Virus record (IMG/VR): IMGVR_UViG_3300039412_000320
Strand: one strand, 5' to 3'
DNA: 64,000 bases
Source of the DNA: a virus
How positions within the stretch are numbered: the first letter of the stretch is position 1; every line of letters begins with the position of its first letter. A model generated the notes under the pieces. That model was not told the DNA's origin and searched no databases. It saw only the letters and a list, made by a program, of their open reading frames with translations. The position numbers and the translations under genes were made by a program. Shown here in pieces: positions 3,158 to 49,260 of this stretch.

Positions 3158-3946
3158 ATGCGAATGACTATTAGAGGCAATTGCACCGTTTGTGGGGGGA
3201 ACTTCAAGCGTCGTTATGCTAAGAACTCCGTTCCTATTGTGAAGCTCTGTTCTAATAAGTGCAGAAGGGAGTGGCTACAAAAGGACAAGGTCAAAAAGGA
3301 GTGCATCGTTTGTAATAAGGTATTTTCCGTAAGCGCCTCAGTAGCTTATAGATATGTCACCTGTAGTATTGAATGCAAGCGTAAACATAAGGAGGGGGAT
3401 AAAAATGGAAACTGGCGAGGCGGTATAGCGGGAAATAGAAAGAAAGAGATTCGTTCCGGTAAGCTTCGTCGTTGGCGGAAAGCGGTCTTTGAAAGAGATG
3501 GACCCCACTGTGTCTTATGCGGGTCTAGTGATGGGTTAGAGGCTGACCGCATAAAGCCATGGTCTCTCTATCCAGAGTTTAGATATGAAGTAAGTAATGG
3601 ACGGATATTGTGCAAGATTTGTCATAACAAGCACACCAGAGAGTTAGCCGCCGAACGAAAGAGACTTGAGGCATTGGGGTATGTACGGATAACTTGTCCA
3701 CGAGAGTACGAGATTTTGGTTTGTCCCAGATGTGGGGTATCTTTCCTTAACAAGAGTGGTCAGAGTATCTATTGCGGAAAAAGGTGTCAAAGAGCGGAAG
3801 GACAGAAACGGTTAAGGGTAGCTAAAGCTGCCCGTGGGGAATGTAAGTGTTGTAGCAATCCAGTTGCCCCTAATTACAGTCGTTGTATTAGATGTCTCGA
3901 AAAGCAAAGAGTGGAGATGGCTGAATACAGAAAGCCTGATGTATGA
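3158..3946 (+). CDS. HNH endonuclease with multiple CxxC zinc fingers
   Basis: Many CxxC pairs. GPHCVLCGS..LEADRIKP..N..LCKICHNKH HNH core. Ends with ATGA overlap onto the next ORF. Confidence 0.55.
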   Translation: MRMTIRGNCTVCGGNFKRRYAKNSVPIVKLCSNKCRREWLQKDKVKKECIVCNKVFSVSASVAYRYVTCSIECKRKHKEGDKNGNWRGGIAGNRKKEIRSGKLRRWRKAVFERDGPHCVLCGSSDGLEADRIKPWSLYPEFRYEVSNGRILCKICHNKHTRELAAERKRLEALGYVRITCPREYEILVCPRCGVSFLNKSGQSIYCGKRCQRAEGQKRLRVAKAARGECKCCSNPVAPNYSRCIRCLEKQRVEMAEYRKPDV

Positions 3947-6856: not shown

Positions 6857-9800
6857 GTGACCCCGACGAGGATACGTCCGACCCCGAAAAGGTTACAGAC
6901 TATGCCTGATAATCTAACCATATACCCAGTTACTCCCGAGTGGGTTTCAAAGGCGAAGGTGTTCTTAGCCGAGAAGTGGAAAGAGCGTGCCCAAGAGTTA
7001 GGTAAATCCAACCCTACGGATATGTCGGGTGCCTGCAAATTTATCTCTCTGTTCGGAAAGACGATTTTCGGGCTTGACATTCAAGGAAACTGGGGGCATC
7101 AGTACAACATCACTCCAGATGGTAAGCCTCTCGACCTTGCTGAGGGGTTTTCGGGAGAGGTTAGTTATCTTCACGATAGTGAATTTTTCAATAACCCCAA
7201 GCATAGGGAATCAATGGCGTCTTGTATGCCGAGGGTGAGGAGATGGGCTGAGGAGTTTATCCAGAGGTATCCCTTATTGGATAAAACGGCGTCCACACAG
7301 ACAAGGTGGTCTCATCCCCTGTTGAATGGGCTTAAGGCGGAAACACGCAAGGCTCCTACCTTCGAGGACTTCAAGCATGACTTCTCCATAGACATTAAGC
7401 ATGGACTGTATTTCCATGTCACCGACAACCCCAACTTCACTATCGACCCGGCGAAGGGTCCTCGGGATATGTCCAGCATGGGAGGCGGGACACCTGTGCC
7501 GGGAAAGTTGATGGTTACTTCTCACTTGGAGAATTGGACGGATTACTACGAAAGCGACCGGGCGTATGTCGCCGTCATTGACATGTCGGAAGTGCCGAGG
7601 GAATCCTACCATCAGGTAAGCCGGGGATTCGGCAATGAGTTTTGGGTGGAGAACCCGCAGGCGGTTAAGGTAGCGGCGGTCATGCCAGTTAAAGAGGCTA
7701 TCAAGCTGGACCGCACATATCAGAACGTTCTGGACCTTCACTCTGATGAAGACCTGTTGGAGTTCTATAACCAGTTCCACGCCCCAGCAGAACCCGAGTG
7801 GAAGCCGCCCAAGGAGCAGGGTAAACTTCCCTTCCGGGGTAAGGGCATTCCCGTAGTCGCTTATGAGCCTTGCGATTTTGAGTTACTGTGGGCAACTTGG
7901 CATAACAAAGTGCTGTTGACCGATGACATGGGTCTCTGGCATGTTAAATGGTTTCAAGAACTCAATCAGCATTCTCAACGGCATGACCCCATTCCTTCAT
8001 GGGGACCGGAGTTTGATAAAGTTCCTCGGGGAAGGGCGGAAGTCAATAAGAAGAAGAAGCGAGTCCGGCTGTACACCGATGCCGCACCCAAGGGGTCAAG
8101 AGCAGGTGAATCCATTACAGGAGAGGTTGACTTTGACTTTACCCCCGAGGAAGTAGTAGCCAAGATAAAGCAGAAGTATCCCTCACTCCGGGACTTTGAG
8201 TTTGTAGATGAGGTTGCTCCTCGGATAATGGGCAAATGGGCAGCCGATGAGTTTGAATACCCTCAGATTGCCTACCATGTCAGCCGTCGCCGTAGCCGGA
8301 ACTCCATTCTAAAAAATGGATTGCAGATGTACCACAAGCAGCAGTATGAGGATGTGGAGCACGAGCCAGCGGTGTATTTGTTCGGTAGCCTCACTGATGC
8401 CGAGAACTGGGTAGGTGAGCAGCAGCCCTACACAGGACAAGCTTGTGACATCTGGGAAGTGAAAGTCCCACAAGGGGAAGGAACGTTTTGGCCGGACTTC
8501 GAGGTTCGGCACGAATACCCCACGGCGTGGAAGTATCTCTGGGATATTCCTCCACAAAATATCAAGCTCATCAAGACTATATCGCTCCCCAAGCAGGCGG
8601 CTCTACCCACTGGAAAAGCCATAGATGACCTCGGGATATCCGGTCAGCAGGGATGGTCATATGACGAGCCGTTCCCGGACCGGCATAATGATTTCTACGA
8701 GGACGACCAAGTTCAGAATCCCCACAATGAGCACCCCCTGACCGCCTCTCTATCCCCGGCCTACACCGAGGAAGTAAAGAAACTGGAATACGAGCACGAG
8801 CTTATCTCCTTGGCGGAGGAGATGGGGAACTTCGAGCGGGTGGTGTGGGAGCGCCAGCCGGTCCTCAAGACTCACATGTTGGACACCGTGGGCTTGGCAG
8901 GCTCCGCAAACGACTACCCACATCTACGGGCCGTCCATGTGGGTGACCCCGACTATTGGTTCAGTCGGCTGACAGAAGATTACAGCCGTGACTCCAAGGC
9001 GTGGGTGGTGGAGATATATCCCACCGAAGATGACTATCTGTGTGATGATGTGCAGTATGCCATGGACCCTAGCGGTGGAGACAAAGCATATAGCGCCATT
9101 CTCATCACTCCTCGCACTCAGTTGGTGGAGGGTAAGGATTTCCGGTACGTGAAGGAATTGACGGAGGAAGACCTCCCCGAAGTCTATGATGAAGATGACG
9201 GGTTTGGTTTCAAGGACGCTGCTATTAAAAAGACAGTCATCATGTGGGTTCGTCATGAGGGAAAGCTTTACACCACCGTACAGGTTGGGGGCAAGAGCCA
9301 TGCCCAGTGGTTGGAAGAACTGAGCCTACCGTTCTCCGGTCCTTCCTACGACCGAATAGAACGAGGGGTAGCGATTGTAGACCGAGGGCACAGAGTCGTT
9401 CACCTCGTCAAGAACGCCGGGGGATACACGCCCAATGACGTAGTGGAATACATCAAGAATCGGTACAATCTGAAGGAGTTTATATTCGTTGATACGGAAA
9501 GCTCCGACACGGGTATTGTAGCCTTCAAAAAAGTTGCCAGTGACGATGCTTACTACGATGCGGCAGAGGCGTTCTTTGACCGGGAGAGCGTGGTAGCCGT
9601 AGAAGTAATCACCGAATACATGCAGCACGTCCGCCAGAAGAGGTATCGTCAGCAGTGGAATGTCGTGCCCGCCGCCCGGCTCATCAAAATTTGGGAAGAC
9701 TACATGAAGACGGGGTTTGTCCGGGACTCAGCGGGTCTTAATCAGATAGCGGAAACCGTCATTGACAACTGCTTTAAGATTTACGTCAATTCCATCCTCT

Positions 9801-12800
9801 GCGGTCATAGTGCGATGGGGCCAGAAGAGTATGCTTTGGAGATGCTGGAAAGGGAAGGTATATCCAAGAAATTCCCGGAGGACTACTTTAAGAGGGCACC
9901 AGACTACTTTGATACCCCGGAAGGCGGCTGGAGGATAAGTGACCAAGCTGAGGGGCGTTTGATGAATCTCGTGCAAGGGGTGTACCTTGCCAAGAGTGAT
10001 GAAGACAAGTTACAAGCGCTTGATAAGGTCTTGCAGTTTTCCCACCCCCGCAGCGACCTGTCAAGCTGGCTGGTGCAAGGCGGAAGGACCACCTTGAATC
10101 GGCTCTTCACCGGCATGAATGAATATGAGCGGTGGGAGCAATACGGCGGCGTGGAGGAGGCAAAAGAGTTAAACAAGGAGTTCAATAAGGGTAGGAATGC
10201 CCCCCTTATTCCCAAGGAGGCGTGGAGCACGGAGCCGGGCGGAGAGCCGCTCAAGCCCGAGACTCAATCCACTATCGCTGAGATGGTAGCGGATATACGC
10301 AAGATATACCCTGAGTGCCAGCGCATCTCCTTGGCAGGCTCCGCCGCTCGTGACGAACTCAAACCCAAGTCTGACATTGATGTGGTCATTGATTTCCCCA
10401 AGGGCACTCCCGCATGGGATATGGTGGAAAGAGACCAACCACTTTGGGACAAGTACCAACAGGTGGAAGGTCGGATGGTGGACTTCATCATCCATGTAAA
10501 AGGTGGACCGCACGCCGGGCAGTATGATTACCGGGAGGAGTTGGGTCTCCCCAATCCCATGAAAACTTTGTGGGAGGCTACAACCAAGACCGCTTCCTTC
10601 TCCGTTGAAGGTGAGGGATGGCTGACCCCCGATGGTCGTTTCCTCCCCAACGCTTTCGGTGAAAAGCACGAAGACAGCGCCCTGCGCCTCGGGTTTTTAA
10701 CCAAGGAAGAAGCCAAGAAGATAAAGAACGACACCCAGCGGAAAGAGCAGGTCATTGCCAAGGGGAACATTCGGGTTGGATTCTCTAACACCGGCAACAC
10801 CATCTTCTTTGAGTCAAAGACTCTTGATGCCGATACCAAGAACCTGATAGGTATGGGCTTGGAGAATCTGCCGAGAGGCGTTCGTAAGGTCTCAGTTTCA
10901 ACCCAAGATGAGATGTATTACCTGTGGACTTTGCAAGAAGCTCAAGAGGTTTTTTGGGGTAATGAGCCGATGCCCCAAAACATGGCCTACCTGAGCGTGG
11001 CTTCCAAGACCGCCGCTCTCCCCGGCCTCGGACTCCTCCAGCCTGGACACGGGGATGATTCCAGTGCGTTTGACCCCGGCTATTACATGACCGAGGGGTG
11101 CGGTATATTTGCTGTGGATGCTGATTACCGGTACTGGGGGAAGGACGTGATTCAACCCCTGATGACCGCTAAGACTGCCAAGACCGCCTCGGAATGGGGA
11201 GGTTTCTGTCCCCGTTGTGGTTCGGACCAGACAGCGTGGGCGATGCACTCTGCGACCACTGACACCTATTTCTGCATGGATTGCAAGGGCAGCACCGACA
11301 TTGAACGGGACATGCACCCCGACTTACGGTCGGCTATGAAGATAGCTGGATTGGTAGGATACCCGTGGGCGATATGGGAGGGCAAGGTTCTCCTTAGCCC
11401 GAGGGGAATGGCACACACCGACTGGTTCTCTCGTATGGGAATCCCCGACCGAGGACCGGAGTTTGACCGCATCCCAAGGGGCAACTTTTACATTGACAAA
11501 GCTAAGAGGCAAATCTACGTCTGGACGGATGCCGAGACTTATGACTACTCTAAGAACCCCTCAGAAGAGAGCCTAGACGATACGGTGGTTTTTGGTCCAT
11601 GGGGAGGAAGGAGATTCGACCTTGAATTTACTCCTCCCGAGGTGATAGAAGCCATCAAGCGAAAGTACCCCTACACCGAAGCTTATGAGGTGGTTGACTG
11701 GATGCCGCCCGGCTCCGTTCACAAGTGGAGTTCCGGCGAGTGGTGGAGGCGTTGGCGCAAGACCTATCTTATCTCCAAGGGTACCATCCTCTACCACGGC
11801 ACAACGGAAGATTTCCCGGCAATGGACATCCAAACCCCGGCATGGTTTAGCACCTCTGAATCTGTTGCCGAGTACTTTAAGGCGTGGCATGGCGGCGAGG
11901 AGGGCGAGCAACGCATTCTCAAATTCCAAGTCACCAAGCCTATCCGTCTCCCAAGGATAGATGGTTCGGAAGACCTTGAAAGACTCGCTGATATGTTCAA
12001 CTTCCCCAGCCCGCTAAGTGGGCATGATTATGTGGAAGACCTTGCCCAAGTCCTCCCCGGCTGGATTATCCCCCACAACTACCCGGACGGCGATGATATC
12101 CTGCTCGTCAGTGACCGGGACATCATACCCATCAATGAGCCGGAAGAGGAAGAAGAGGAAATCTCGCAGGAGGGTTTGCCCCCCGGAGCTTGGAGGAACA
12201 ACTCTGGTCTCCCCGGCTATTGGACTCGTGAGGGTACCACCACCATTTACCACATGACACCCGAGGAGATAGCGGAGCGGGAACAGAGGTTGCAGAAGCG
12301 GTCAGCGGCGGAGCCGGTCAAGGCTGAGGAGGCGACGTGGAGCCGTCCGCTCTACCACGGCACCTCGGCTTACCGGGCGAAGAAAATAAAGGCCCAGAAG
12401 AGCTTCTACGGTGAGACCGAGGGCTACAACGAGATGGGGGTGGGGGTCTATACCCACCCGTCCATGAACCGCACCAGCCCATGGGCAGCGGGCCGGGCGC
12501 AGGGAGCTTTCATGGAGCTTCATTTCACCCGTCCTCTAAAGTTGGCAGTGAAGAATCCGCAAGGCGAGTGGGTATCCTCCATGGGAGGAGAAAGTCATCG
12601 GTTTATTAGCAAGGCACCGACGCAGAGAGAACTCGTTGACGCCGGATACGATGGTATCTACGATAAGCACGGCACTACGCAGGTTCCCCACCAAGTGCTT
12701 CTGTTCAATCAGCCGGTGCTGGGGTCGGGCGGGGCACACAAACTCAATCAACTGATTGACTGGGACAAGGTCCGCATTATCAACTTCAACGAGTCCCAGC

Positions 12801-12934
12801 ATGGTTACCTCAAGGGGTTGGAGAACACCGAAGAAGCACCCCATTACCGGGGAGCTTCTCAAATGACCGCCGCCGATGACCGGCCCATGCCCAAGGAGTT
12901 TGTCACCACCAAGAACCTCAAGACTAACATTTAG
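6857..12934 (+). CDS. Giant polyvalent protein (2025 aa): transglutaminase-like Cys protease, 3 KptA/Tpt1-like domains, 3 copies of the GPxFDRIPRG module, MNT nucleotidyltransferase, zinc ribbon
   Basis: Uninterrupted 6 kb ORF with GTG start after SD agagggggg. GACKFISLF..GHQYNITPDGKPLD (C-H-D TGase-like). GSAARDELKPKSDIDVVIDFP (GS..DxD MNT). CPRCGSD..FCMDCKG. IAYHVS, ILYHGTT and PLYHGTS domains. Confidence 0.7.
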   Translation: MTPTRIRPTPKRLQTMPDNLTIYPVTPEWVSKAKVFLAEKWKERAQELGKSNPTDMSGACKFISLFGKTIFGLDIQGNWGHQYNITPDGKPLDLAEGFSGEVSYLHDSEFFNNPKHRESMASCMPRVRRWAEEFIQRYPLLDKTASTQTRWSHPLLNGLKAETRKAPTFEDFKHDFSIDIKHGLYFHVTDNPNFTIDPAKGPRDMSSMGGGTPVPGKLMVTSHLENWTDYYESDRAYVAVIDMSEVPRESYHQVSRGFGNEFWVENPQAVKVAAVMPVKEAIKLDRTYQNVLDLHSDEDLLEFYNQFHAPAEPEWKPPKEQGKLPFRGKGIPVVAYEPCDFELLWATWHNKVLLTDDMGLWHVKWFQELNQHSQRHDPIPSWGPEFDKVPRGRAEVNKKKKRVRLYTDAAPKGSRAGESITGEVDFDFTPEEVVAKIKQKYPSLRDFEFVDEVAPRIMGKWAADEFEYPQIAYHVSRRRSRNSILKNGLQMYHKQQYEDVEHEPAVYLFGSLTDAENWVGEQQPYTGQACDIWEVKVPQGEGTFWPDFEVRHEYPTAWKYLWDIPPQNIKLIKTISLPKQAALPTGKAIDDLGISGQQGWSYDEPFPDRHNDFYEDDQVQNPHNEHPLTASLSPAYTEEVKKLEYEHELISLAEEMGNFERVVWERQPVLKTHMLDTVGLAGSANDYPHLRAVHVGDPDYWFSRLTEDYSRDSKAWVVEIYPTEDDYLCDDVQYAMDPSGGDKAYSAILITPRTQLVEGKDFRYVKELTEEDLPEVYDEDDGFGFKDAAIKKTVIMWVRHEGKLYTTVQVGGKSHAQWLEELSLPFSGPSYDRIERGVAIVDRGHRVVHLVKNAGGYTPNDVVEYIKNRYNLKEFIFVDTESSDTGIVAFKKVASDDAYYDAAEAFFDRESVVAVEVITEYMQHVRQKRYRQQWNVVPAARLIKIWEDYMKTGFVRDSAGLNQIAETVIDNCFKIYVNSILCGHSAMGPEEYALEMLEREGISKKFPEDYFKRAPDYFDTPEGGWRISDQAEGRLMNLVQGVYLAKSDEDKLQALDKVLQFSHPRSDLSSWLVQGGRTTLNRLFTGMNEYERWEQYGGVEEAKELNKEFNKGRNAPLIPKEAWSTEPGGEPLKPETQSTIAEMVADIRKIYPECQRISLAGSAARDELKPKSDIDVVIDFPKGTPAWDMVERDQPLWDKYQQVEGRMVDFIIHVKGGPHAGQYDYREELGLPNPMKTLWEATTKTASFSVEGEGWLTPDGRFLPNAFGEKHEDSALRLGFLTKEEAKKIKNDTQRKEQVIAKGNIRVGFSNTGNTIFFESKTLDADTKNLIGMGLENLPRGVRKVSVSTQDEMYYLWTLQEAQEVFWGNEPMPQNMAYLSVASKTAALPGLGLLQPGHGDDSSAFDPGYYMTEGCGIFAVDADYRYWGKDVIQPLMTAKTAKTASEWGGFCPRCGSDQTAWAMHSATTDTYFCMDCKGSTDIERDMHPDLRSAMKIAGLVGYPWAIWEGKVLLSPRGMAHTDWFSRMGIPDRGPEFDRIPRGNFYIDKAKRQIYVWTDAETYDYSKNPSEESLDDTVVFGPWGGRRFDLEFTPPEVIEAIKRKYPYTEAYEVVDWMPPGSVHKWSSGEWWRRWRKTYLISKGTILYHGTTEDFPAMDIQTPAWFSTSESVAEYFKAWHGGEEGEQRILKFQVTKPIRLPRIDGSEDLERLADMFNFPSPLSGHDYVEDLAQVLPGWIIPHNYPDGDDILLVSDRDIIPINEPEEEEEEISQEGLPPGAWRNNSGLPGYWTREGTTTIYHMTPEEIAEREQRLQKRSAAEPVKAEEATWSRPLYHGTSAYRAKKIKAQKSFYGETEGYNEMGVGVYTHPSMNRTSPWAAGRAQGAFMELHFTRPLKLAVKNPQGEWVSSMGGESHRFISKAPTQRELVDAGYDGIYDKHGTTQVPHQVLLFNQPVLGSGGAHKLNQLIDWDKVRIINFNESQHGYLKGLENTEEAPHYRGASQMTAADDRPMPKEFVTTKNLKTNI

Positions 12935-14991: not shown

Positions 14992-15040
14992 TTCCCTCCA
15001 CTCTCAGTATACCACAAGGTGGAGGGAAACACGGATTATT

Positions 15041-15406
15041 TTATGCCTCAGCATCCACGGCGTGCAGGGATGCCTCGCCATCCTCGGTGGGAGGCGCTGG
15101 CATGGGAGTTGATGCTACCGGGTCGATGGACGGGGGCGCAACCGGAATAGGAGTGGCTGACTTCTTGCCTTTCCTCGGCTTCGCTTCCTCGGGGTCGATG
15201 CGCCACACCCGGACGCCGCCCCCCACCTTGAGACGCTTGAAACGCTTCCCTGTTTTCGTTTGCAGAGCGGCAATGGTCTTGCTCAGACTGGAAGACCGGG
15301 GTACGGCGATGACGGCGCTCTGCCCGACTCTCAGCTTTCCCAACACTGCGTACTTGGATTCTTTCTGAGGAACGGGAACTCCGTCCTCAATCAATTCTCC
15401 GCTCAT
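15041..15406 (-). CDS. hypothetical protein (start at MSGELIEDG), Pro/Ala-rich C-terminus
   Basis: ORF, no motif. Confidence 0.35.
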   Translation of the reverse strand: MSGELIEDGVPVPQKESKYAVLGKLRVGQSAVIAVPRSSSLSKTIAALQTKTGKRFKRLKVGGGVRVWRIDPEEAKPRKGKKSATPIPVAPPSIDPVASTPMPAPPTEDGEASLHAVDAEA

Positions 15407-15638
15407 ATTGCCTCCAATGGGCTGTAGCCCATGTATCCACAAATACCCAAAATATTGCGACTTTCGTGAATAAATCTTCAAACCGTTGATTTTATTGAGT
15501 TAACTTGACGCTGGCGGCGACGTTACCGGGGGCGGAGGAGCGGTTGGGTCCGGTGGTGTGGTTTGGCCGTTTCCACCACATTAACAAATAAACAGCTTGT
15601 GCATAACCTGTGGAGGATTTTTAAAAACGATTAAACAG

Positions 15639-16331
15639 TTACTGGTTGAGGATTGAGGATTGAGGGCTAGGATGTCTGCCGCAGGTGCAAGGCTTACCAT
15701 GATTGATGTTCCATCGTTGGCAAGAAGCTTTGATAAGAACCCCATTCTTAGCATTCTTTTGACCATTCAATTTGCCGCCAACCTTGCCGCCACGAACATG
15801 AGCCTCATGATTCATCTTGGTTATTGCAGTTTTTCCTCCCCGACTACAACTTTCTTTTGTAACAATAGAAGCAAGGTGACCAGTCTCTACATTTTTTCTG
15901 CCTTGTATTCTACCAGTTATTTTTCCACCAATCTTTCCTCCTTTACTACAGCTTTCCTTGGTTGCAAGGAGATAGATACGACCGTTTTCTACACTTTTTC
16001 TACCGGCTTTTGCCATCTTTTTACGAATCTCCGAGGATGGATTACATAACCTATCTCCTCCGTCAGTCCCATTTCTTAGACACCCAGTTCCTTGGTCTAT
16101 TCGCCCATACATAGCTATTAAGAATTTCTCTCCATCCAATGCGTGGACTTCGTTTGGCCACTCCTGAGTTAAGATACAATCAGGATTAGTTGGAGGAGAA
16201 AAATATCTATTGCCTACTTTATGTTTTACAAATGCTCGTCTTCCGTGTCCTTTACCAACATAGTAGGGGCATCCCACCTGTCCACAAACTGGACATGGGT
16301 AGTCACGTAACCACATGTAAGTATAGAACAT
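15639..16331 (-). CDS. GIY-YIG-like homing endonuclease with GGK-repeat region; paralogue of 19855-20538
   Basis: FYTYMWL..PYYVGKGHGRRAF (GIY-YIG variant). Repeated GGK(I/V)GGK..G motifs. C-terminal RWNINHGKPCTCGRHP matches RWNVHRGKPCTCGKH of 19855-20538. Confidence 0.5.
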   Translation of the reverse strand: MFYTYMWLRDYPCPVCGQVGCPYYVGKGHGRRAFVKHKVGNRYFSPPTNPDCILTQEWPNEVHALDGEKFLIAMYGRIDQGTGCLRNGTDGGDRLCNPSSEIRKKMAKAGRKSVENGRIYLLATKESCSKGGKIGGKITGRIQGRKNVETGHLASIVTKESCSRGGKTAITKMNHEAHVRGGKVGGKLNGQKNAKNGVLIKASCQRWNINHGKPCTCGRHPSPQSSILNQ

Positions 16332-16349
16332 AGCAGATTTGTTGCCTTG

Positions 16350-16691
16350 TTATGTTTGCGGTGGGGAAGGAACTACAGGGGAGTCTGAGTCGGCATCTAC
16401 GCCATGTCCATCCCCATTTTGACCATCACCTTTCTTTTTTGTAAAAAACCGCCCTAGAGCATTAAATCCATGACCCCCGCAAAATACTCCCATTATCGTA
16501 GGGTAGCTGGGGTCCGTAGTACCGTGTCGTAAGAATGCAATCGCATAAATGACGCTGTGTTCCAACATCAGGAAACAAGTTACGACTGAGGTTCCGAGAA
16601 AGATTAAACGTGAATTTACGTCAGGTTCTTTCAAGGCTCTTTCAAAGAGATTTGTACTGTAAACTCCTAACTTTCTTATCCAGTTGAACAT
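16350..16691 (-). CDS. small membrane protein
   Basis: Hydrophobic segments, start at MFNWIRKL. Confidence 0.35.
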   Translation of the reverse strand: MFNWIRKLGVYSTNLFERALKEPDVNSRLIFLGTSVVTCFLMLEHSVIYAIAFLRHGTTDPSYPTIMGVFCGGHGFNALGRFFTKKKGDGQNGDGHGVDADSDSPVVPSPPQT

Positions 16692-17296
16692 TTTAGGCTC
16701 CTGAGAGCAGCAGTCATTGCCACCCACTCCTCATAGGTAAACCAACGTCCTTTAGCATAGTTGCACCGCTTGCAGCATACTACTAAGTTCTCTAATGTAT
16801 AGGGTAGTTCATTGTTTTTCCTATCTAGGTTGTATCTGTGCCCACTCCTACTGACATCATATTTCTTCCATGAGACGGGAGCCCCGCAGTAGTGGCAAGA
16901 AGTTACAGATATAAAGGAAAGAAGCTGCTCGTAAGTTAAGTCTAATGGTATGTTTCTATGTTTTGCTGTTTTTGTGAGCAAGATAAAGAGGGCCTCATAC
17001 GGTCTTTTTGAAGCTTTACCATTAGTCCAACGGAAAGAACAGCACTTTGTTCCTCCTCCGGTCATAAGTTGATTGTCAGAAACCGTTTTTGTAGTTTTCT
17101 TTTCACATTGGCATTCACAAAGCCAACGACGGTGAAAACGAGTGTAAGTTGCACATTTATAATGAACAGGAGTGGCGGGAGCAAGGACTCTCCAGTTTCC
17201 GAACAACTGCCCTACCCTGTTCATAGGCAAATGATGACCAAGAGCGAAGCGGTTTTTGACAACCGTCCCGCATCCACATTCACACAAGTTTCCCAT
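16676..17296 (-). CDS. HNH endonuclease
   Basis: Cys-rich N-terminus, HRYNLDRKNNELPYTLENLVVCCKRCNYAKG HNH core. Confidence 0.55.
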   Translation of the reverse strand: MGNLCECGCGTVVKNRFALGHHLPMNRVGQLFGNWRVLAPATPVHYKCATYTRFHRRWLCECQCEKKTTKTVSDNQLMTGGGTKCCSFRWTNGKASKRPYEALFILLTKTAKHRNIPLDLTYEQLLSFISVTSCHYCGAPVSWKKYDVSRSGHRYNLDRKNNELPYTLENLVVCCKRCNYAKGRWFTYEEWVAMTAALRSLKCSTG

Positions 17297-17356
17297 ATAT
17301 AAAGAATACGGTAGTAGTTTTGGCTTGTTCAGGCACCTCTATAAAGGGGTGCATAT

Positions 17357-19843
17357 TTAGCTGGTAGCAGCTTTGGTAGCAGAGGCTTCCTCGTTAACAG
17401 CAACATCTTCGGCGACCAGTACACCCTCGGCAACACGGGTGAAACTAAGGTCTTCGTTGTCTTTATCCACTACGATGAGGTCTCCCATGTTGACTTGTTT
17501 GGTGTTAAGAAAACGGGAAAGCCGCTTCACTACCAGCTTCTCTATTATCCGCTTGAGAGGACGTGCCCCGTTCTTTAAGTCCGTGCCTTGGGTTATCAGC
17601 AGGTCTTTGGCGGCGGGGGTGAACTCCAAGACAAACTGCCGGAGGTCTCGCATCTTTAACACCCGGCTCTGCACCTGTTCGATTTCCAGTTCCACCACCT
17701 GTTTGAGTTGCTTCTTATCCAAGGAGTGAAACACCACTATCTCATCTATGCGGTTGAGGAACTCCGGGGTGAAGCGTTTCTTGGCGGCTTCCAGTCCTGC
17801 TGTCTCCACTTCTTTGTTGAACTCCTCACTGCTCTTTGTGGAAGACCCGGCAAACCCCAATCCACCTCGGGCGAGATATTGCATTTCTCGGGAGCCGAGA
17901 TTTCCCGTCATGATGATGAGGCATTTATCGAAGGTGCTTTGCTTGTTGTCACCCAAGGTAAGTGTGCCTTTGTCAAGTATTCCAAGTAACAAGTTCCACA
18001 GGGCGTCGTTAGATTTCTCAAACTCGTCAAAGAGTAAAAGTGTCAATTTTAACTCTTCGGTGTGGTGGGCATCCAGACTTTCCTGACGTAAGTAGGCTGG
18101 TGTATCCCGGTGTCCTAGATAACCCGGAGGAGAGTTATGTACTTGAAAACAAACCATATAGTATGATTTATCTTTTATGGATAAATCGTACACCATCCCC
18201 TTGTACAGTTCTCGTTCAATCTTTTTTATTCGGGTGTAGATATAGTCATCATCCACATAAGACATACGTTGAATTCCCGAATTTCCCAAGTTTAGAAGGT
18301 TGAGGCTTTTCCCGACTATGCGGAGGTTACTGGCAAACTGTGCTATTTGGTCTCCGGCTACGTATAGCCGGTAACGAGTGGATGCCTTATACCCCCGCTT
18401 ATCCTTCGGGTGTTGCTCCTGCATTTGGACTGCGTACCCCAAGTTATGAAGGAGGAATTGTATCTGGAAAGCCAAAGTTTCGGAGCTTGTGGCGTAGTCA
18501 ATGCGGCGGCAAACAGTCTTCCCCCCATCCCCCAAGATTGCCGTATCTAAAAAGTCGTAGGCTAGTTCTGGGCGTAAGTCGGAGACCCACGCTGGAAAAC
18601 GCTTGCGAAGAGCATGGTCACCAAAAAGGTCAGTCATCATAAGACTTATGGGTCGAGAGGAAAGGTATATCCGATAACTGCTCTTTCGCTCTTTCACCCT
18701 TATGTGAACGTCCCCAAACACCCTGTATATAAGCTCTCTCACCTCTTGAATGCACGGGCTGTCCTGCCCGTGTTTTCCGAATGTAAAATTGATGGATTTC
18801 TTGCTTTTGGAGTTTCCACCTTCGCTAACGTAAAATCCGGCCAAGCGCATAAAATCAGAGCTTACAGGTATAAAGCGGGGGAGCTTTTTTTTCGTCGCCG
18901 TTGACCAGATGTCTTTGTTATCAGACTTAAATCTGGGAAGGCCCCTAGTATATTCGGCTAAGTCGAGGGTTACGTCTTGGAGGGAAGATTTATGGCGAGG
19001 GTATACCACTACATCCCCCGCTTTAAGGTCTCCCGCCGCTATATCTTTAAGATTATTCGGTGAGCAAAACGTGCTGAGGAGCCGTCCCCTCTTTGTCGTC
19101 GCCCGGTTTTTCGTGCATGGGTCCTGAATGGCCCTTATTTCATGCCAAGGAGTGCATCCCACGGGTATGTTGGTGTTTCCAGCCGTTAGTTTTACTATTT
19201 CTCCGGCATATTCGTGGCTATGGGTTTCAATAACAGGGTGCGGTTCCCCATTTTCCCCACTTATGCTAGCGTTTTTTTCGACTTTTTCTATAGGTAGAAC
19301 AGTGCCTCCGGGAAACATCACCCGTGTTCCCGTAATGAAACACCCCACCAATTTGGAAATCTCGTGAGAGTGTTGAAATTCTGCACAATCAACTTTTTTG
19401 AGAGCCTTTTTGGTGCCGAAGAGAAGCTCCGCCATTACTTCAATGATGTAGGTCTTCCCGCAACCGGTGGGACCGAGGAATATTAGATTTCCGACAGGAT
19501 GGTCAGGCGGGGCTAAACCAGCACGGAAGGTTTCGTATGCGTCTACGAGTACCTCAATTGCCCGTGTCTGTCCGACGATAAGATGCTTTAGGCTGCTGGC
19601 AAGTTCTTCCTCAGCCTCGCTCTTGATGTTAGGGTCAAGCCGTTTGCACTGCTTTTTAGGCATTCTTGGCACTGCTTCTCGTCTAAGCATCAGGGTAATT
19701 TCCGGTTCCTCATTACATGATAAGTTCCGTAGTTCGTTTCCTATTTGATGCGTAAAATGCACGGGGTGCGCCCATACTGAAACGCACCCCGTTGACTTGC
19801 GGCAGAGAGAAGGGTGCTTTCTTCCTTTCCCTTCAGTTATCAA
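17357..19843 (-). CDS. Clp-family AAA+ ATPase (ClpA/B/C D2-like) interrupted by an intein; true start possibly the internal Met near 19690
   Basis: Walker A GPTGCGKT. SKLVG[intein]SPPGYLG corresponds to the conserved ClpB SKLIGAPPGYVGY. LLLFDEFEK, GARPLKRII ClpB-like C-terminus. Confidence 0.8.
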   Translation of the reverse strand: MITEGKGRKHPSLCRKSTGCVSVWAHPVHFTHQIGNELRNLSCNEEPEITLMLRREAVPRMPKKQCKRLDPNIKSEAEEELASSLKHLIVGQTRAIEVLVDAYETFRAGLAPPDHPVGNLIFLGPTGCGKTYIIEVMAELLFGTKKALKKVDCAEFQHSHEISKLVGCFITGTRVMFPGGTVLPIEKVEKNASISGENGEPHPVIETHSHEYAGEIVKLTAGNTNIPVGCTPWHEIRAIQDPCTKNRATTKRGRLLSTFCSPNNLKDIAAGDLKAGDVVVYPRHKSSLQDVTLDLAEYTRGLPRFKSDNKDIWSTATKKKLPRFIPVSSDFMRLAGFYVSEGGNSKSKKSINFTFGKHGQDSPCIQEVRELIYRVFGDVHIRVKERKSSYRIYLSSRPISLMMTDLFGDHALRKRFPAWVSDLRPELAYDFLDTAILGDGGKTVCRRIDYATSSETLAFQIQFLLHNLGYAVQMQEQHPKDKRGYKASTRYRLYVAGDQIAQFASNLRIVGKSLNLLNLGNSGIQRMSYVDDDYIYTRIKKIERELYKGMVYDLSIKDKSYYMVCFQVHNSPPGYLGHRDTPAYLRQESLDAHHTEELKLTLLLFDEFEKSNDALWNLLLGILDKGTLTLGDNKQSTFDKCLIIMTGNLGSREMQYLARGGLGFAGSSTKSSEEFNKEVETAGLEAAKKRFTPEFLNRIDEIVVFHSLDKKQLKQVVELEIEQVQSRVLKMRDLRQFVLEFTPAAKDLLITQGTDLKNGARPLKRIIEKLVVKRLSRFLNTKQVNMGDLIVVDKDNEDLSFTRVAEGVLVAEDVAVNEEASATKAATS
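18134..19342 (-). mobile_element. Intein (403 aa) with LAGLIDADG homing endonuclease inside the GAPPGYVG motif of the Clp ATPase
   Basis: Starts CFITG (Cys1) directly after LVG, ends VHN followed by S (+1 Ser). Internal LAGFYVSEGG and LDTAILGDGG LAGLIDADG motifs. Confidence 0.8.
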
Positions 19844-19854
19844 TACTGGTTATT

Positions 19855-20538
19855 TTAAAATTTATTGGAGAGTTGGTGTTTTCCACAGGTGCAGGGCTTG
19901 CCACGGTGGACGTTCCAACGGAGACACATAGCAATACGGTTTAGAACTGCCATATGGCCAGGTATTTTTGCAACTGTTCGTCCCCCTAACCCACTCTTAC
20001 CAAGATTGGAGGCTTGCCCGCTTTTAACATTTTCACGAGCTGTTTCAGTTCCATTTTTAACTGCGATAATGTGAGAGACCCGCTTCTGAAGTGACAGAGG
20101 AGTTGAATCGGCGTATTTTTTCCAGTTTTTTATCCTTGCCTCTCGGGATTGACTTTTCCCCCCTTTAATTTTTGCTTCCCGAGGTTGCATAATCCCCCCA
20201 AGTCTAGAGATGTTTTTATAATCATGGGAGCCGGGAAAGGTAAGGTTCATACCACCAGGGTATCCTCTCCAAGTGTGATATTTGAACATGGCTAAAATTT
20301 CAGCACAATTGGCGTCAAGACAATTATTAGCGGTTTCTTCCCACCTTACAGGTTGGGGTAGAGTAGCGTTAGGAAATAGAGTTTGGAATCTTCTTCCAAA
20401 AGAAGACTTTCCAGAACGATGCCGTTTGTCACGGTCAATACCTTGTCCTACATACAACCATTTATCTTGAATAAACGGGTGAGGGTACCTGTAGAGACAT
20501 ACAACCATAGTTGGTTCTCGCTTTTCGAGGGGAGCCAA
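19855..20538 (-). CDS. GIY-YIG-like homing endonuclease, paralogue of 15639-16331
   Basis: WLYVGQG..R N-terminus, C-terminal RWNVHRGKPCTCGKH shared with 15639-16331. Confidence 0.45.
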   Translation of the reverse strand: MAPLEKREPTMVVCLYRYPHPFIQDKWLYVGQGIDRDKRHRSGKSSFGRRFQTLFPNATLPQPVRWEETANNCLDANCAEILAMFKYHTWRGYPGGMNLTFPGSHDYKNISRLGGIMQPREAKIKGGKSQSREARIKNWKKYADSTPLSLQKRVSHIIAVKNGTETARENVKSGQASNLGKSGLGGRTVAKIPGHMAVLNRIAMCLRWNVHRGKPCTCGKHQLSNKF

Positions 20539-20600
20539 GGCGGGCTCCCCTCTTCAACCACCCATGAAAAGCTATGGTAGACTATTTTGAAGTCTCCAAT

Positions 20601-21359
20601 TCATTCACCGGACTGAGGAGACGCTGGTTCCGCTGGACCGGTCACACCTGACGCTGCCTTGGCTTCCTCTTGCTTTTTGACTATTTCTTCCATGCTCAAT
20701 ATTCTTATAGGCACTACAGGGGAAGCAAGCACTTCCACCGGCTCCGGTTCCTTGGGAGGAAGAATGTAACCAAGCAGGGAAAGCTCCACTTGCATATTCT
20801 CTTTTGCAATCGCCGCCATCTTGGACTCAAACTCCTTCCGGAAATACAACCGGGGACGGGAAAGCAGTTCCTTTAGAGCGGCTATTCTCCCTTGTTCCCA
20901 TTGTTGGGGATCAAGAAATTTCCATGATTGCTGGAGTTTTCTGGAATAGGCGAGATACTTCACCCGGCTCTGTCCCAATATCGCAATGCGCATATCCCCC
21001 ACCACGGAGGAACTTTTTAGAGAGGGGCGGGATTGGGTGATGAGGGGAATGACGTAATTCTCCGCTTCATCGAAAGTGAATCCCAGTTTTTGGCTATCCC
21101 GGAGGAAAGCCACTACCCCGGTCTCCTCATCATTAGGTTCAGCGGCGTGGTAGAGCCATGCTGCCATGGCATCACGAACCGGATATACGCCGAGAAGCCG
21201 GTGATGCTCATGGATACCCAGTAACAGGTAATCGGCGTTCTGCCATTTACGCTTGGGGTCATTGTAAAATAATAGGATGTGTTGAATGGTCTCCTCTACC
21301 TCGGGCTTCCCCTTGGGGTTGAGAACCATTGACAGGATTTCAGAAAGCTGCGGTTTCAT
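20601..21359 (-). CDS. hypothetical protein downstream of tail fibre (start MKPQLSE)
   Basis: ORF trimmed to the first Met that does not overlap the tail-fibre gene. Confidence 0.4.
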   Translation of the reverse strand: MKPQLSEILSMVLNPKGKPEVEETIQHILLFYNDPKRKWQNADYLLLGIHEHHRLLGVYPVRDAMAAWLYHAAEPNDEETGVVAFLRDSQKLGFTFDEAENYVIPLITQSRPSLKSSSVVGDMRIAILGQSRVKYLAYSRKLQQSWKFLDPQQWEQGRIAALKELLSRPRLYFRKEFESKMAAIAKENMQVELSLLGYILPPKEPEPVEVLASPVVPIRILSMEEIVKKQEEAKAASGVTGPAEPASPQSGE

Positions 21360-21370
21360 AAAGAATAATA

Positions 21371-23584
21371 CTATGAACTCAGTAGTTGCCAGCTTAGGAA
21401 CGCCCCGGTAGTGACGGTAATGCCGTTCAAGTTTGCTCCATACAGATTGATGACGTATCCCGCCATGGTCGGAGTCACGTCGTTGGTGTGGGTCTCCGAG
21501 TAAACCTGCTGCCAATCGAGATTCGTCGGGTCAGTGCTGTACCAGTAAGTCCGGGTGCTGCTGTTGTCATGAATCTTCATCCAGAAAAGTGGCGGGAAGA
21601 TGTACATGGAAGTTGCAACATTGTGGGAGAAGGCGCTGGTAGTGGTGTAGTAGTCTATTTCCAATACCGGCACAGCGTTGTTTCCCTTGCCGATGTCAAA
21701 CGTCTTGAATTTCGTCCCGTCCGACAAAGCAATACCCTCCCACCAATTGCCGTTGTAAATGGTACTGGTGCTGTACATGAACATGGGGGGTTTGATGATG
21801 AGAGCCGCAATGACCGTCCAAGGAGTGACCGGGAGGTTTACACCATAGAAGTGGATGTTGTCCGCCCCGTTACCTGTGGCACTGAGTGCCAGCATGTTAT
21901 TCTGGGCTATCAGCGTGGACGTTCCTTGGTTGACCCAAAAGAAGCTGGAGGTGGTCGGCGGGGTGAGGCCAGAAAACGGGTAGGTGCTGCCGCTAGATGG
22001 CCCAGTGTAGCCGGTATATCCAGTAATGTTCGGCCCTGTGTAACCCGTATACCCCGTCGCACCTGTGGAAGACGCCGAACCGGGCGGGCCAGTATCTCCA
22101 GTATAGCCGGAATACCCCGTATACCCCGTAAAATTCCCCGGCCCGGTATAGCCCGTATAACCAGTTGTTCCAGCGCCCGTGTAACCGGTGTAGCCGGTGA
22201 ACGCTCCCGGCCCGGTTGGGCCGGTGTATCCAGTGTAACCGGTGAAATTGCCCGGACCCGTATATCCGGTGAACCCGCTATAGCCGGTATACCCGCTGGG
22301 TCCCGTGTAGCCTGTGGGTCCCTGTGCTCCCACGGGCAGCACGGAGCAGATGACCGAGGCATAGTAGGCGGTGGCGGCAGGGTCTTGGGTATTGAAGTTC
22401 GCCACGATGGGTGCCACGGGGATGCTTGCCGACGATGCGTAGCCGAGGCAGAACTGCTGCCCGTCAAACCCCGAGCCGCCACTGAAGGTGATGGTGTTGG
22501 TGTAGGGAGAGCTAAGGGGAGGGGTATTGAACGAGAATGCGTAGGAGACCGCCGCCCTGTTGCAGCAGAACGAGCCGAAGACCGTGGCGGCGGTATTGAT
22601 GCTGATGGTGGAGGACGTGAGCGTGCCTGCACCGTTGTTAATCGTGGCTATGCCGCTGGCGAAGACGAGCGAGGGCGTACCGGCGACCTCCACCACGCTC
22701 CAATACATATTGCCGTTGTTGACGCCGACGCTTCCTGCCCACGTCTCGCCATCACCGCCGATCACCGTCCTTGACCACACGGTGACGACGATGTCCGAGC
22801 CGGACGAGTAGGAAGTCTGCTGCGTCAAGCCTGCCGGTGGGGTGACCGTCCCCCCGTAGTAGTTGCCCTCAAGGAAGAAGAGGAGCGTGTTCCCGGCTAC
22901 CGGCGTGGTAGCCAAGGTGATGGTGAACGAGGTGGAGTTGGACTTGACAGCCTGCGCCTGCACCACGGCTGGAGGCGTGGCAGAGAGGTATCCCGTATAA
23001 CCGGTAAAGCCCGTGTAGCCTGTGAACCCACTGTATCCCGTGTACCCAGAGTAACCTGTGAAGTTACCCGGCCCGGTATAGCCAGTGTACCCGCTCGGGC
23101 CGGAATATCCGGTGTACCCTGTAAACCCAGTAAAGTTGCCGGGGCCGGTATACCCCGTGTAGCCACTTGCTCCCGTGTAACCCGTATACCCAGTGAACCC
23201 TGTGAAGTTACCGGGGCCGGTATAGCCCGTGAACCCGGTGTAGCCGGTCGGCCCAGAATACCCTGTATAACCCGTAAAATTGCCGGGGCCAGTGTAGCCG
23301 GTATACCCAGTTGGCCCAGTCGCTCCCGAGGAACCCATCTGAACTTGGGAGTAGGTGCCCGGCGACCCCACGGTGACCAACTGCCAGAAGGTCTGGTCGG
23401 AGCGGACGTACACCATCATGCCGACTTCTTGACGAAGCTGGGGGATAGCGTCACGGGCGGTGTAGTCGTCTACCTCACGCCATCCCCCGAGGCCGTAGAT
23501 AGCCTCGTGCGTCGGGAAGGTGTCGGCGTCGGTGAACGGGACAACCTGCGCAGCTACGTTTACTCCTGTGAGTGGTGTCGGCAT
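21371..23584 (-). CDS. Tail fibre protein with collagen-like G-X-Y repeats
   Basis: Two blocks of GYTGYTGPGNFTGYTGYSGPTGYTGFTG triplet repeats. Ser/Thr/Asn-rich beta-type C-terminus. Strong SD upstream. Confidence 0.7.
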   Translation of the reverse strand: MPTPLTGVNVAAQVVPFTDADTFPTHEAIYGLGGWREVDDYTARDAIPQLRQEVGMMVYVRSDQTFWQLVTVGSPGTYSQVQMGSSGATGPTGYTGYTGPGNFTGYTGYSGPTGYTGFTGYTGPGNFTGFTGYTGYTGASGYTGYTGPGNFTGFTGYTGYSGPSGYTGYTGPGNFTGYSGYTGYSGFTGYTGFTGYTGYLSATPPAVVQAQAVKSNSTSFTITLATTPVAGNTLLFFLEGNYYGGTVTPPAGLTQQTSYSSGSDIVVTVWSRTVIGGDGETWAGSVGVNNGNMYWSVVEVAGTPSLVFASGIATINNGAGTLTSSTISINTAATVFGSFCCNRAAVSYAFSFNTPPLSSPYTNTITFSGGSGFDGQQFCLGYASSASIPVAPIVANFNTQDPAATAYYASVICSVLPVGAQGPTGYTGPSGYTGYSGFTGYTGPGNFTGYTGYTGPTGPGAFTGYTGYTGAGTTGYTGYTGPGNFTGYTGYSGYTGDTGPPGSASSTGATGYTGYTGPNITGYTGYTGPSSGSTYPFSGLTPPTTSSFFWVNQGTSTLIAQNNMLALSATGNGADNIHFYGVNLPVTPWTVIAALIIKPPMFMYSTSTIYNGNWWEGIALSDGTKFKTFDIGKGNNAVPVLEIDYYTTTSAFSHNVATSMYIFPPLFWMKIHDNSSTRTYWYSTDPTNLDWQQVYSETHTNDVTPTMAGYVINLYGANLNGITVTTGAFLSWQLLSS

Positions 23585-24442: not shown

Positions 24443-24874
24443 ATGAGTACCAAGTGTGCAAAGTGTGGAGAAACGGATAAGTCAAAATTTACTAAGAACT
24501 CCGCCAAGAGTAGTGGTTTACAGTCTTATTGTAAAAAGTGTCATAATGATGCCCAAAAAGCTAGACGATTGCAGCGAGGCTACAACTTTGAGAATCTGAG
24601 AAGGTGCTACCGCATTACAGTAGAAAAATACAATGAGATGCTTATCCAACAAGGTGGGGTTTGCGCTATATGCGGAGAGCCTGAGACAGTGGTTGTAAGG
24701 GGTAGAGTGATAAATTTAGCCGTAGACCACGACCACTCATGCTGTCCCGGAAAAACATCTTGTGGAAAGTGTGTGCGTGGTCTCCTCTGTCGTCGTTGTA
24801 ATTGGATTCTTGCTAGGTGGAGGGATGATATGAAGTTATTTGAAAAGGCAATTTCTTACCTTAGACGGGGGTGA
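24443..24874 (+). CDS. Recombination endonuclease VII-like (T4 gp49 family)
   Basis: CAICGE..NLAVDHDHSCCPGKTSCGKCVRGLLCRRCNWILARW matches EndoVII HLDHDH..GKVRGLLCNLCN. SD aaggagg. Confidence 0.7.
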   Translation: MSTKCAKCGETDKSKFTKNSAKSSGLQSYCKKCHNDAQKARRLQRGYNFENLRRCYRITVEKYNEMLIQQGGVCAICGEPETVVVRGRVINLAVDHDHSCCPGKTSCGKCVRGLLCRRCNWILARWRDDMKLFEKAISYLRRG

Positions 24875-49024: not shown

Positions 49025-49099
49025 GGTGACTGTAACTCAGTGGCAGAGTGCCTGACTGTGAATCAGGATACGGGGGTTCGATTCCCCTCAGTCACCCCA
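49025..49099 (+). tRNA. tRNA-His(GTG) with encoded G-1
   Basis: g-gtgactg/cagtcac, cctga-ctGTGaa-tcagg, ttcgatt T-loop, CCA encoded. Confidence 0.7.
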
Positions 49100-49104
49100 A
49101 GTTT

Positions 49105-49176
49105 GGTGAGTGAACCCCACAGGGTACTCGGTCTGGTCCGAGGGGGCGGGGGCAGCCCACTTCGTCATTCACCCCA
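49105..49176 (+). other. Unclassified CCA-ending structured element (9-bp terminal stem, no T-loop)
   Basis: ggtgagtga...tcattcacc-cca. Internal ctcgg-tctggt-ccgag and G-rich hairpins. Not a canonical tRNA. Confidence 0.3.
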
Positions 49177-49182
49177 ATATAT

Positions 49183-49260
49183 GGTCCCGTAGCTCAGCCC
49201 GTATAGAGCAACTCCCTCCGAAGGAGAAGGTCGTCGGTTAAAATCCGACCGGGACTTCCA
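49183..49260 (+). tRNA. tRNA-Arg(CCG)
   Basis: ggtcccg/cgggact, anticodon loop ctCCGaa, T-loop ttaaaat (atypical). Confidence 0.5.

Follow-up and report, generated by a model that had tools for sequence, protein, structure and literature searches.

Within a stretch of viral DNA of 64,000 nt from IMG/VR virus record IMGVR_UViG_3300039412_000320 (the whole stretch is called the window in the following), we identified a gene on the minus strand for a Clp-family AAA+ ATPase whose pore-loop motif is interrupted by an intein of 403 amino acids (aa) carrying a LAGLIDADG homing-endonuclease domain. This core claim of an initial annotation, which had been made from the nucleotide sequence, was supported by profile searches, conserved blocks in 11 inteins, the predicted fold, and a natural intein-less allele. 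Altogether, we put the probability that the insert is a splicing-competent class-1 LAGLIDADG intein yielding a 365-aa Clp ATPase at about 0.85. A further-reaching reading, in which the endonuclease has remained active and the mature ring cooperates with ClpP, seems reasonably probable to us, though with distinctly less confidence.

Insertion site and host domain

The precursor gene (17357..19663, minus strand, on which all of its features lie) encodes 768 aa with a computed mass of 86.3 kDa, ends with a stop codon at 17357-17359, and is composed of N-extein, intein, and C-extein. The N-extein (19343..19663, 107 aa) ends in ...HSHEISKLVG, harbors a Walker A motif GPTGCGKT (19451..19474), and aligns with ClpC, ClpA, and ClpB D2. 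The C-extein (17357..18133) comprises 258 aa plus the stop codon and includes the D2-small domain. Starting with a serine at position +1 (18131..18133), it displays the pore loop GYLG (18113..18124), Walker B (LLLFDEFEK, 18014..18040), sensor-1 (IMTGNLG, 17894..17914), a candidate ClpP-docking loop LGF (17852..17860, residues 199-201 of the spliced protein), and the GAR arginines in the motif GARPLKR (17549..17569). The insertion point is located between KLVG and SPPGYLG, four residues ahead of the pore-loop tyrosine. By motif position, this residue is equivalent to Y540 of ClpA, Y653 of ClpB, and Y153 of ClpX in the E. coli K-12 references. The functional role of the pore-loop tyrosine in Clp proteins is well established; the tyrosine of the D2 ring in particular is treated in PMC11005422.

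Pfam analysis of the unspliced protein detected AAA_2 in two pieces, together with ClpB_D2-small, LAGLIDADG_3, and Intein_splicing, while the protein spliced in silico gave a single AAA_2 match (2-166 of 166, E = 1e-32). The spliced 365-aa sequence aligned unbroken through the junction to D2 of the Staphylococcus aureus and Bacillus subtilis ClpC proteins (E = 4e-58), with 'sklvgsppgylgh' of the spliced extein facing 'srlvgappgyvgh' of ClpC D2, and B. subtilis ClpC itself has LVGSPPGYVG at the junction motif. It also aligned through the junction to the second nucleotide-binding domain (NBD2) of Thermus thermophilus ClpB, so that the comparison of the exteins with ClpB D2 proposed in the initial annotation returned a contiguous Clp domain. 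A model of the spliced extein, built from an alignment of natural intein-free homologs, reached a predicted local distance difference test score (pLDDT) of 84.8, and its best fold matches were ClpC D2, ClpB NBD2, ClpC1, and also ClpA D2. The NCBIfam models for ClpB, ClpA, ClpK, and ClpV aligned to the extein only across their second ATPase ring. Thus, the protein shows the full set of features of a Clp/Hsp100 D2 module, i.e., AAA_2 and ClpB_D2-small, both Walker motifs, sensor-1, the arginines, and a GY[VIL]G pore loop. The spliced ATPase was also matched by the PADLOC candidate defense models PDC-M37B (E = 4e-27) and DolB (E = 4e-14), which probably reflects generic AAA+/D2-small similarity.

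Intein-less alleles and relatives of the gene

A scan of metagenome contigs for the exact 24-nt spliced junction gave no match, and a codon-degenerate version of the same scan led to a contig of 237 kb (L116). The protein encoded there (P0132; loci L116 and L126-L128) was also found on contigs of 317 kb and, in ERZ27249816 k141_1180871, of 364 kb, shares 97% identity with the spliced extein, and reads KLVG-SPPGYLG uninterrupted. Comparison via blastn showed that positions 9810-10320 of L126 correspond to 19848-19344 of the window and positions 10322-11049 to 18133-17407. Based on these boundaries, the stretch 18134-19342 of the window is missing to the base in L126, which places the empty insertion site of this sibling phage at about position 10321. 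The empty sibling allele is the strongest evidence for the intein. A further relative (P0131) is 86% identical and exactly 365 aa long, which is the predicted length of the spliced protein. Profiles, junction alignment, models, and the intein-less allele thus bore out the annotated insertion into the G-[AS]PPGY[VL]G motif of a Clp AAA+ ATPase.

The gene family also includes a syntenic ortholog from a related phage (P0008, L008 7236-9380) with 63% extein identity and the same ART-PolyVal neighbor, in which the pore-loop site is empty. Instead, it carries an unrelated LAGLIDADG intein of 356 aa in the P-loop of Walker A (GPTGSGK|C...THN|T), so that two independent intein sites exist in one phage gene family. 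Between the two inteins, only a local alignment of 70 residues with 30% identity was obtained. A third form is displayed by P0013 (Joint Genome Institute, JGI; 506 aa), which harbors at the pore-loop site a mini-intein of 182 aa from which the complete endonuclease domain has been lost; P0003 is the near-identical full-length counterpart of this mini-intein. With full inteins, a mini-intein lacking the endonuclease, and empty sites, every stage of the homing cycle is represented in this family. Taken together, the pair of sibling phages, the mini-intein, and the Walker A intein offer a compact natural setting in which the homing and decay of inteins can be studied in uncultured jumbo phages.

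Two further observations were made on these relatives. P0132 (L126 10001-11011) departs from the window at about position 17407 and ends early (...NMGGPHRSGQRQRRP, 336 aa), which indicates a recombination breakpoint in the 3' end of the Clp gene with replacement of the last c. 30 codons. Moreover, P0009-P0012 and P0014 (loci L093/L094) belong to a second group of phage Clp proteins (about 1040-1066 aa) that share both the intein and its insertion site; in these, the single AAA+ ring is preceded by an uncharacterized N-terminal extension of c. 300-400 aa.

Anatomy and fold of the intein

The intein (18134..19342, 45.7 kDa) consists of a Hint splicing domain into which a LAGLIDADG homing-endonuclease domain is inserted. 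At the DNA level, the insert comprises 1209 nt in frame; as annotated, its first residue is Cys, its last two are His-Asn, and the C-extein continues with Ser, and it is exactly this stretch that the sibling allele lacks. For comparison, we aligned 11 homologous inserts from the same position, which are 35-55% identical to this intein, and scored invariance in nine of them. Block A is represented by Cys1 (19340..19342), the nucleophile of the N-S acyl shift, which was invariant in 9/9 inteins and also in the alignment of all 11. Block B contains the TxxH motif T64-P-W-H67 (19142..19153) with T64 and H67 invariant, and blocks F and G (18134..18193) read VYDLSIKDKSYYMVCFQVHN, including D386, the penultimate H402, and the terminal N403, with V384, D386, and N403 invariant, as is the Ser at +1 behind them. 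The A, B, F, and G blocks whose absence would have spoken against the annotation were therefore all found by alignment to homologous inteins, and K247 and P250 of block D were invariant in the nine inteins as well.

Both endonuclease motifs named in the initial annotation are present, namely LAGFYVSEGG (aa 167-176 of the intein, 18815..18844) and LDTAILGDGG (aa 265-274, 18521..18550). They lie about 100 aa apart, and each closes with a catalytic acidic residue, E174 and D272, respectively; E174 and G175 in the first motif and G271, D272, and G273 in the second were invariant. Pfam analysis of the isolated insert revealed LAGLIDADG_3 well above its cut-off (36.7 vs. 22.5 bits), covering aa 264-339, and the NCBIfam models matched by the insert (intein-containing Tes, Pol II, RecA, RFC, and GyrA) were aligned over their intein portions only.

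PI-PkoII was the only solved structure matched to the intein by sequence (E = 5e-14). The AlphaFold2 model of the intein (pLDDT 86, predicted template modeling score 0.88) yielded PI-PkoII (2cw7, E = 2e-18), TliVMA (7qss), Pho VMA (7qst), PI-SceI (1vde), and PI-PfuI (1dq3) as top matches in Foldseek. Its endonuclease domain matched monomeric I-DmoI with a TM-score of about 0.7 (normalized to the target) and displays the pseudo-dimeric alpha-beta-beta-alpha-beta-beta-alpha fold. Altogether, the insert combines an in-frame insertion, a host protein that becomes contiguous on its removal, blocks A, B, F, and G, a +1 nucleophile, and a Hint fold. A bacterial intein-like (BIL) domain or a plain Hint domain was also considered and rejected based on the nested endonuclease, the His-Asn end with Ser at +1, and the precise empty-site allele.

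Predicted splicing

From the conserved residues, we infer the following splicing route. Translation of the gene would yield a precursor of 86 kDa, in which the Hint domain folds and Cys1 would form a thioester with Gly-1, aided by T64 and H67 of block B. The +1 Ser would then attack the thioester to give a branched ester, and Asn403 would cyclize with the aid of H402 and D386, releasing the 46-kDa intein. A final O-N shift would leave a 41-kDa ATPase with the native sequence KLVG-SPPGYLG. Since the pore loop beside the tyrosine would be intact in the spliced protein only, only this form would be expected to make a working hexamer. The computed masses of intein and spliced ATPase are 45.7 and 40.6 kDa, and the predicted splice-junction peptide is ISKLVGSPPGYLGHR.

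An insert that does not splice would leave a disrupted pseudogene or a permanently chimeric protein. Weighing against splicing, the Pfam score for the splicing domain is borderline: Intein_splicing reached 35.9 bits in the isolated insert against a cut-off of 35.8 and fell just under it (33.1 bits) in the full protein. Moreover, the penultimate His is replaced by Ser or Lys in a few relatives. In this copy, however, H402 and all other catalytic residues are present, and 15 contigs, which come from several samples, share the same uninterrupted reading frame of 2.3 kb. Furthermore, 42 synonymous vs. 9 non-synonymous codon differences from the intein-less sibling show the exteins to be under purifying selection, and 403 aa inserted four residues from the pore-loop tyrosine would break the AAA+ ring. 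We thus regard a non-splicing insert as hardly credible and favor a splicing-competent intein.

The short distance to the pore-loop tyrosine would also keep the unfoldase inert until splicing, so that the intein might serve as a post-translational switch. We consider such a role quite improbable; if it were true, splicing via Cys1 might depend on redox conditions, temperature, or infection stage, and it would time the takeover of host ClpP by a single-ring adaptor-unfoldase for the degradation of host or defense proteins.

Substitutions flanking the insertion site and proposed homing

Comparison of the window with the intein-less sibling allele revealed that differences are concentrated around the insertion site. 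Within 90 nt of the junction, 31/180 positions differ vs. 30/868 elsewhere (17% vs. 3.5%; Fisher p = 4e-10). In the N-extein, the differences lie within 73 nt of the junction except for a single one at 105 nt, and no substitution separates the two alleles in the first 216 nt of the gene; in the C-extein, almost all wobble positions of the first 24 nt differ. With the P0131 gene as outgroup, changes specific for the window amounted to 20/180 positions near the junction vs. 11/780 far from it (p = 1.4e-8), an 8.7-fold enrichment. Outgroup-specific changes were not enriched there (odds ratio 0.97), which argues against a mere mutational hot spot at the junction. Such a substitution tract would be expected if the intein had been acquired from a diverged donor along with short extein flanks (co-conversion).

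Comparative data thus suggest a homing cycle in which the freed intein, or the endonuclease domain within the precursor, would cut intein-less alleles in a co-infection, and repair would copy the intein together with c. 25-90 nt of flanking extein. The footprint is consistent with homing and is no proof that the endonuclease is active at the present day. Several further points weigh against this reading. Changes specific for L126 were also enriched near the junction (10/180 vs. 12/768, p = 0.003), so that the pattern fixes neither the direction nor the number of conversion events. An intein-less copy with the same junction sequence was not encountered: all 15 contigs with P0001, the protein identical to the precursor, carry the intein, as do the fragments in the 90% cluster. 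With every near-identical copy carrying it, there is no sign of an ongoing invasion within the strain. Finally, identity to homologs is similar for intein (38-55%) and extein (35-49%), which would fit long co-residence as well as frequent transfer.

Some of the same observations favor an intein that still splices but has a dead endonuclease, i.e., a resident passenger fixed in the phage lineage and passed on by vertical inheritance only. Divergence of intein and extein track each other among the homologs, all near-identical contigs carry the intein, the exact-junction scan gave no empty allele of the same strain, and the relative P0013 already lacks the endonuclease domain. On the other hand, E174, D272, K247, and P250 are invariant across inteins of only 35-55% identity, and the endonuclease domain was modeled with high confidence and matched I-DmoI and PI-SceI. 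In addition, the window-specific changes clustering beside the insert are mostly synonymous, which points to recent gene conversion in the history of the allele. A dead endonuclease therefore appears unlikely to us, and an endonuclease that is still active is the reading we prefer.

The host protein family and its relation to ClpC, ClpA, and ClpB

The spliced ATPase belongs to a family of single-ring Clp ATPases with at least 7944 proteins at E <= 1e-60. The best 120 members are 336-417 aa long, and those with a named source come mostly from Acidobacteria; several were named AAA family ATPases by NCBI (Candidatus Acidoferrum, Terriglobia). About 15 intein-free single-domain copies were found on IMG/VR viral contigs, and the one cellular homolog examined lies in an ordinary bacterial chromosome context, not adjacent to clpP. 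The initial annotation had described a phage-encoded ATPase with a single D2 domain as uncommon: the single D2 domain was confirmed (365 aa, D2 only), while the size of the family and its viral copies contradict its rarity. SPPGYLG, with Ser at +1, is native in 118/120 of the best members, which makes the pore-loop site permissive for an intein.

In 119/120 of these members, [LM]GF is found no more than 30 residues past sensor-1. In a multiple alignment, LGF of the phage protein lines up with IGL 617-619 of ClpA and with VGF of the ClpC type, while ClpB is gapped at this position. The role of the I/LGF loop in ClpP docking was taken from PMC11005422. Since the family retains this docking loop, which is absent from ClpB, it resembles D2 of ClpC and ClpA rather than ClpB. 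The likeness to ClpB/ClpA D2 stated in the initial annotation thus holds for the D2 module as such and for ClpA; for ClpB, it needs correction, as the protein is closer to ClpC and ClpA. With regard to profiles, the ClpB model TIGR03346 matched only at 558-852 with 241 bits (cut-off 1232), the ClpA model TIGR02639 gave 200 bits (cut-off 993), and the N-domain, D1, and D2 architecture of ClpA/ClpC is lacking. The [ILV]-G-[FL] loop of ClpA/ClpC as class 1 ClpP partners is present. ClpX gave 53 bits (cut-off 359) with only the C-terminal small domain matched.

Judging from these motifs, the mature protein is probably a ClpC/ClpA-D2-like unfoldase ring, with host ClpP as the probable docking partner of its LGF loop. 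One point weighs against the docking: tblastn with E. coli ClpP gave no match in the 64-kb window (best E = 0.85), a weak negative limited to the window. Since a ClpP gene was found neither there nor beside the cellular homolog, the predicted docking depends entirely on the loop motif. Its absence from these two places would suit a ClpB-like remodeler or disaggregase that stands alone without ClpP, e.g., a chaperone in virion assembly. The ClpB model scores highest among the NCBIfam models (241 bits vs. 200 for ClpA), NBD2 of T. thermophilus ClpB ranks among the top fold matches, and assembly roles have been proposed for phage ClpA/ClpX in the jumbo-phage literature (PMC7824862). However, [LM]GF is nearly universal in the family at the very position that is gapped in ClpB, the solved structures matched best by sequence belong to ClpC proteins docking on ClpP, and the phage protein lacks both the M-domain and the first ring, which ClpB needs for Hsp70-coupled disaggregation. 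A stand-alone function is therefore entertained as a tentative alternative, and we prefer a ClpP-docking unfoldase. This uncharacterized ClpC-D2-like ring of 365 aa with an LGF loop, which is common among Acidobacteria and their phages, may be of greater biological interest than the intein.

Distribution of the intein and comparison with known systems

Searching the intein profile against 1.84 billion cluster representatives resulted in 1778 matches (E <= 1e-30), spread over many host proteins. Of the 150 best, 26 are Clp-type proteins that carry the intein at exactly this pore-loop site, which corresponds to at least 26 clusters at 50% identity, and 23/26 of their inteins end with HN. Their exteins fall into groups of about 300-500, about 610-720, and 813-851 aa, and the pore-loop intein occurs in single-ring, N-extended, and full two-ring Clp proteins. 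Two further pore-loop inteins were located on IMG/VR contigs (L093 and L094). Among 50,697 deposited phage genomes, megablast of positions 15000-22000 of the window gave no match, and tblastn of the intein revealed no Clp pore-loop allele; its only match there was a distant intein in the portal protein of Eggerthella phage LE2-3 (23% identity).

The searchable literature (Clp ATPases including ClpA, ClpB, and ClpC, Hsp100, jumbo phages) yielded no description of inteins in Clp ATPases. The only Clp-system intein found in this literature is that of Chlamydomonas eugametos (Wang and Liu 1997, cited in PMC4760082), which resides in the chloroplast protease subunit ClpP and not in the ATPase partner; the host genes are unrelated. 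The Clp/Hsp100 D2 pore loop thus adds a host gene and an insertion site to the known intein sites, and one that recurs in public metagenomes.

The archaeal and yeast inteins PI-PkoII (Tko Pol-2, 2cw7), PI-SceI (VMA1), Tli/Pho VMA, and PI-PfuI likewise possess a Hint domain split by a LAGLIDADG endonuclease with two motifs, and they share Cys1, TxxH, the Asp of block F, His-Asn, and the +1 nucleophile with the phage intein. In structural alignments, however, identity to these was only 11-16%, and they reside in a polymerase, V-ATPase, or ribonucleotide reductase, in contrast to the phage Clp ATPase. Inteins in ATPase motifs have been described for the RFC small subunit, Pol III gamma, MCM, DnaB, and RecA (Novikova et al. 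2016, PMC4760082). As in these cases, the insertion affects the most conserved functional motif of an ATPase, but here this is the substrate-translocating pore loop of an unfoldase and not the nucleotide-binding motif of a replication protein. Compared to mycobacteriophage inteins (Kelley et al. 2016, PMC5050341), the intein is also phage-borne, located in a conserved enzyme motif, and sporadically present among related phages, while host gene and phage group differ; Clp ATPases are not among the host genes named in PMC5050341.

The host ATPase shares AAA_2, ClpB_D2-small, Walker A and B, sensor-1, the GAR arginines, GY[VL]G, and [ILVM]G[FL] with the D2 ring of ClpC, ClpC1, and ClpA. Unlike these, it is a single ring of 365 aa without N-domain, D1 ring, or M-domain and has an insertion of seven residues past the pore loop. 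It scores far below the NCBIfam equivalog cut-offs, and its family, found in Acidobacteria and on viral contigs, is single-domain and uncharacterized.

Start codon, upstream region, and public annotation

An open reading frame (ORF) of 828 aa at 17357-19843 (minus strand) was confirmed, in which the insert takes up residues 168-570. Its TTG start at 19843, assumed in the initial annotation, lies probably 180 nt too far upstream. On identical contigs, gene callers chose either ATG 19663 (P0001, 768 aa) or ATG 19690 (P0124, 777 aa). The former start is backed by P0001, P0131, and P0132, and the ortholog P0008 also has the N-terminus MPKKQ; in addition, a stable hairpin followed by a short T-run (19762..19791, minus strand) falls within the assumed extension. 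Based on these comparisons, ATG 19663 is probably the true start, resulting in a precursor of 768 aa, and the 180 nt at 19664-19843 are probably non-coding. The hairpin, located between the upstream ORF and the Clp start, has a fold energy of -24 kcal/mol (z = -2.5) and is a probable terminator or structure of the 5' untranslated region. A consensus terminator scan did not list it, although it is evident from RNA folding.

P0001 was found on 15 metagenome contigs from several samples, the largest of which, ERZ27250039 k141_400892, has 338 kb. In the public annotation (JGI), the precursor is named 'DNA polymerase III delta prime subunit', and public pipelines missed the intein. Such mislabeling distorts both counts of protein families and the annotation of huge phages.

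Phage context and neighboring genes

The window is phage DNA, as indicated by a collagen-like tail-fiber protein, endonuclease VII, HNH and GIY-YIG genes, and 27 tRNA genes. Related contigs were 99.98% identical to it over the 18.6 kb compared, the largest having 338 kb; the carrier is a jumbo phage of about 340 kb. Based on the cellular homologs of its Clp ATPase, this uncultured phage probably infects Acidobacteria.

Upstream of the Clp gene lies a free-standing ORF of 227 aa (19855..20538, minus strand), which appears GIY-YIG-like by eye only, gave no Pfam or PHROG match, and is not part of the intein. It shares a C-terminal C-x-RWN...GKPCTCG-x-H motif with the ORF at 15639-16331 (minus strand); no profile matched either ORF. 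In L126, positions 19849-20634 of the window, which hold the 227-aa ORF, are replaced by about 50 nt, and different genes are found downstream of Clp, so that the Clp neighborhood is mosaic. Apparent differences in the flanking ORFs among L001-L004 were dismissed as gene-calling artifacts because blastn revealed 99.98% identity to the window there; real presence or absence was seen only in comparison to L126.

The window is dense in free-standing nucleases, with three HNH genes (one with NUMOD3), one GIY-YIG gene with NUMOD3, and endonuclease VII. Nuclease-type or related ORFs are located at 3158-3946, 15639-16331 (minus strand), 16676-17296 (minus strand), 19855-20538 (minus strand), 24443-24874, 36115-36768, and 54468-55265. 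A search of the whole window against Rfam at gathering thresholds revealed tRNAs only and no group I or II intron. The 27 tRNA genes form two arrays (29133-30692 and 49026-55447, plus strand); several are unusually long for their isotype (90 nt for Trp and Arg-CCT), and one Ser(CGA) tRNA gene barely reaches the gathering score for tRNA-Sec.

In L001-L004, an additional 2613 nt are present at breakpoint 11111/11117 of the window, with a 7-nt direct repeat (GCTGTGG) as their boundaries; this could reflect a deletion, a mobile insert, or a difference in assembly. The ART-PolyVal/nucleotidyltransferase gene (6857-12934, plus strand) appears as one ORF of 2025 aa in the window and as two overlapping ORFs in L001-L004. 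An ORF of 306 aa (40111-41031, plus strand) carries a dATP/dGTP diphosphohydrolase domain at its N-terminus (dGTP_diPhyd_N, E = 5e-10). We take this domain to be MazZ-like, and it would thereby hint at a pathway for DNA with modified bases of the 2-aminoadenine type. Finally, an ORF of 810 aa (30761-33193, minus strand) gave no PADLOC match and matched the eukaryotic major vault protein (MVP_shoulder, E = 8e-22; Vault_3, E = 2e-10); a vault-like shell protein is unexpected in a jumbo phage.

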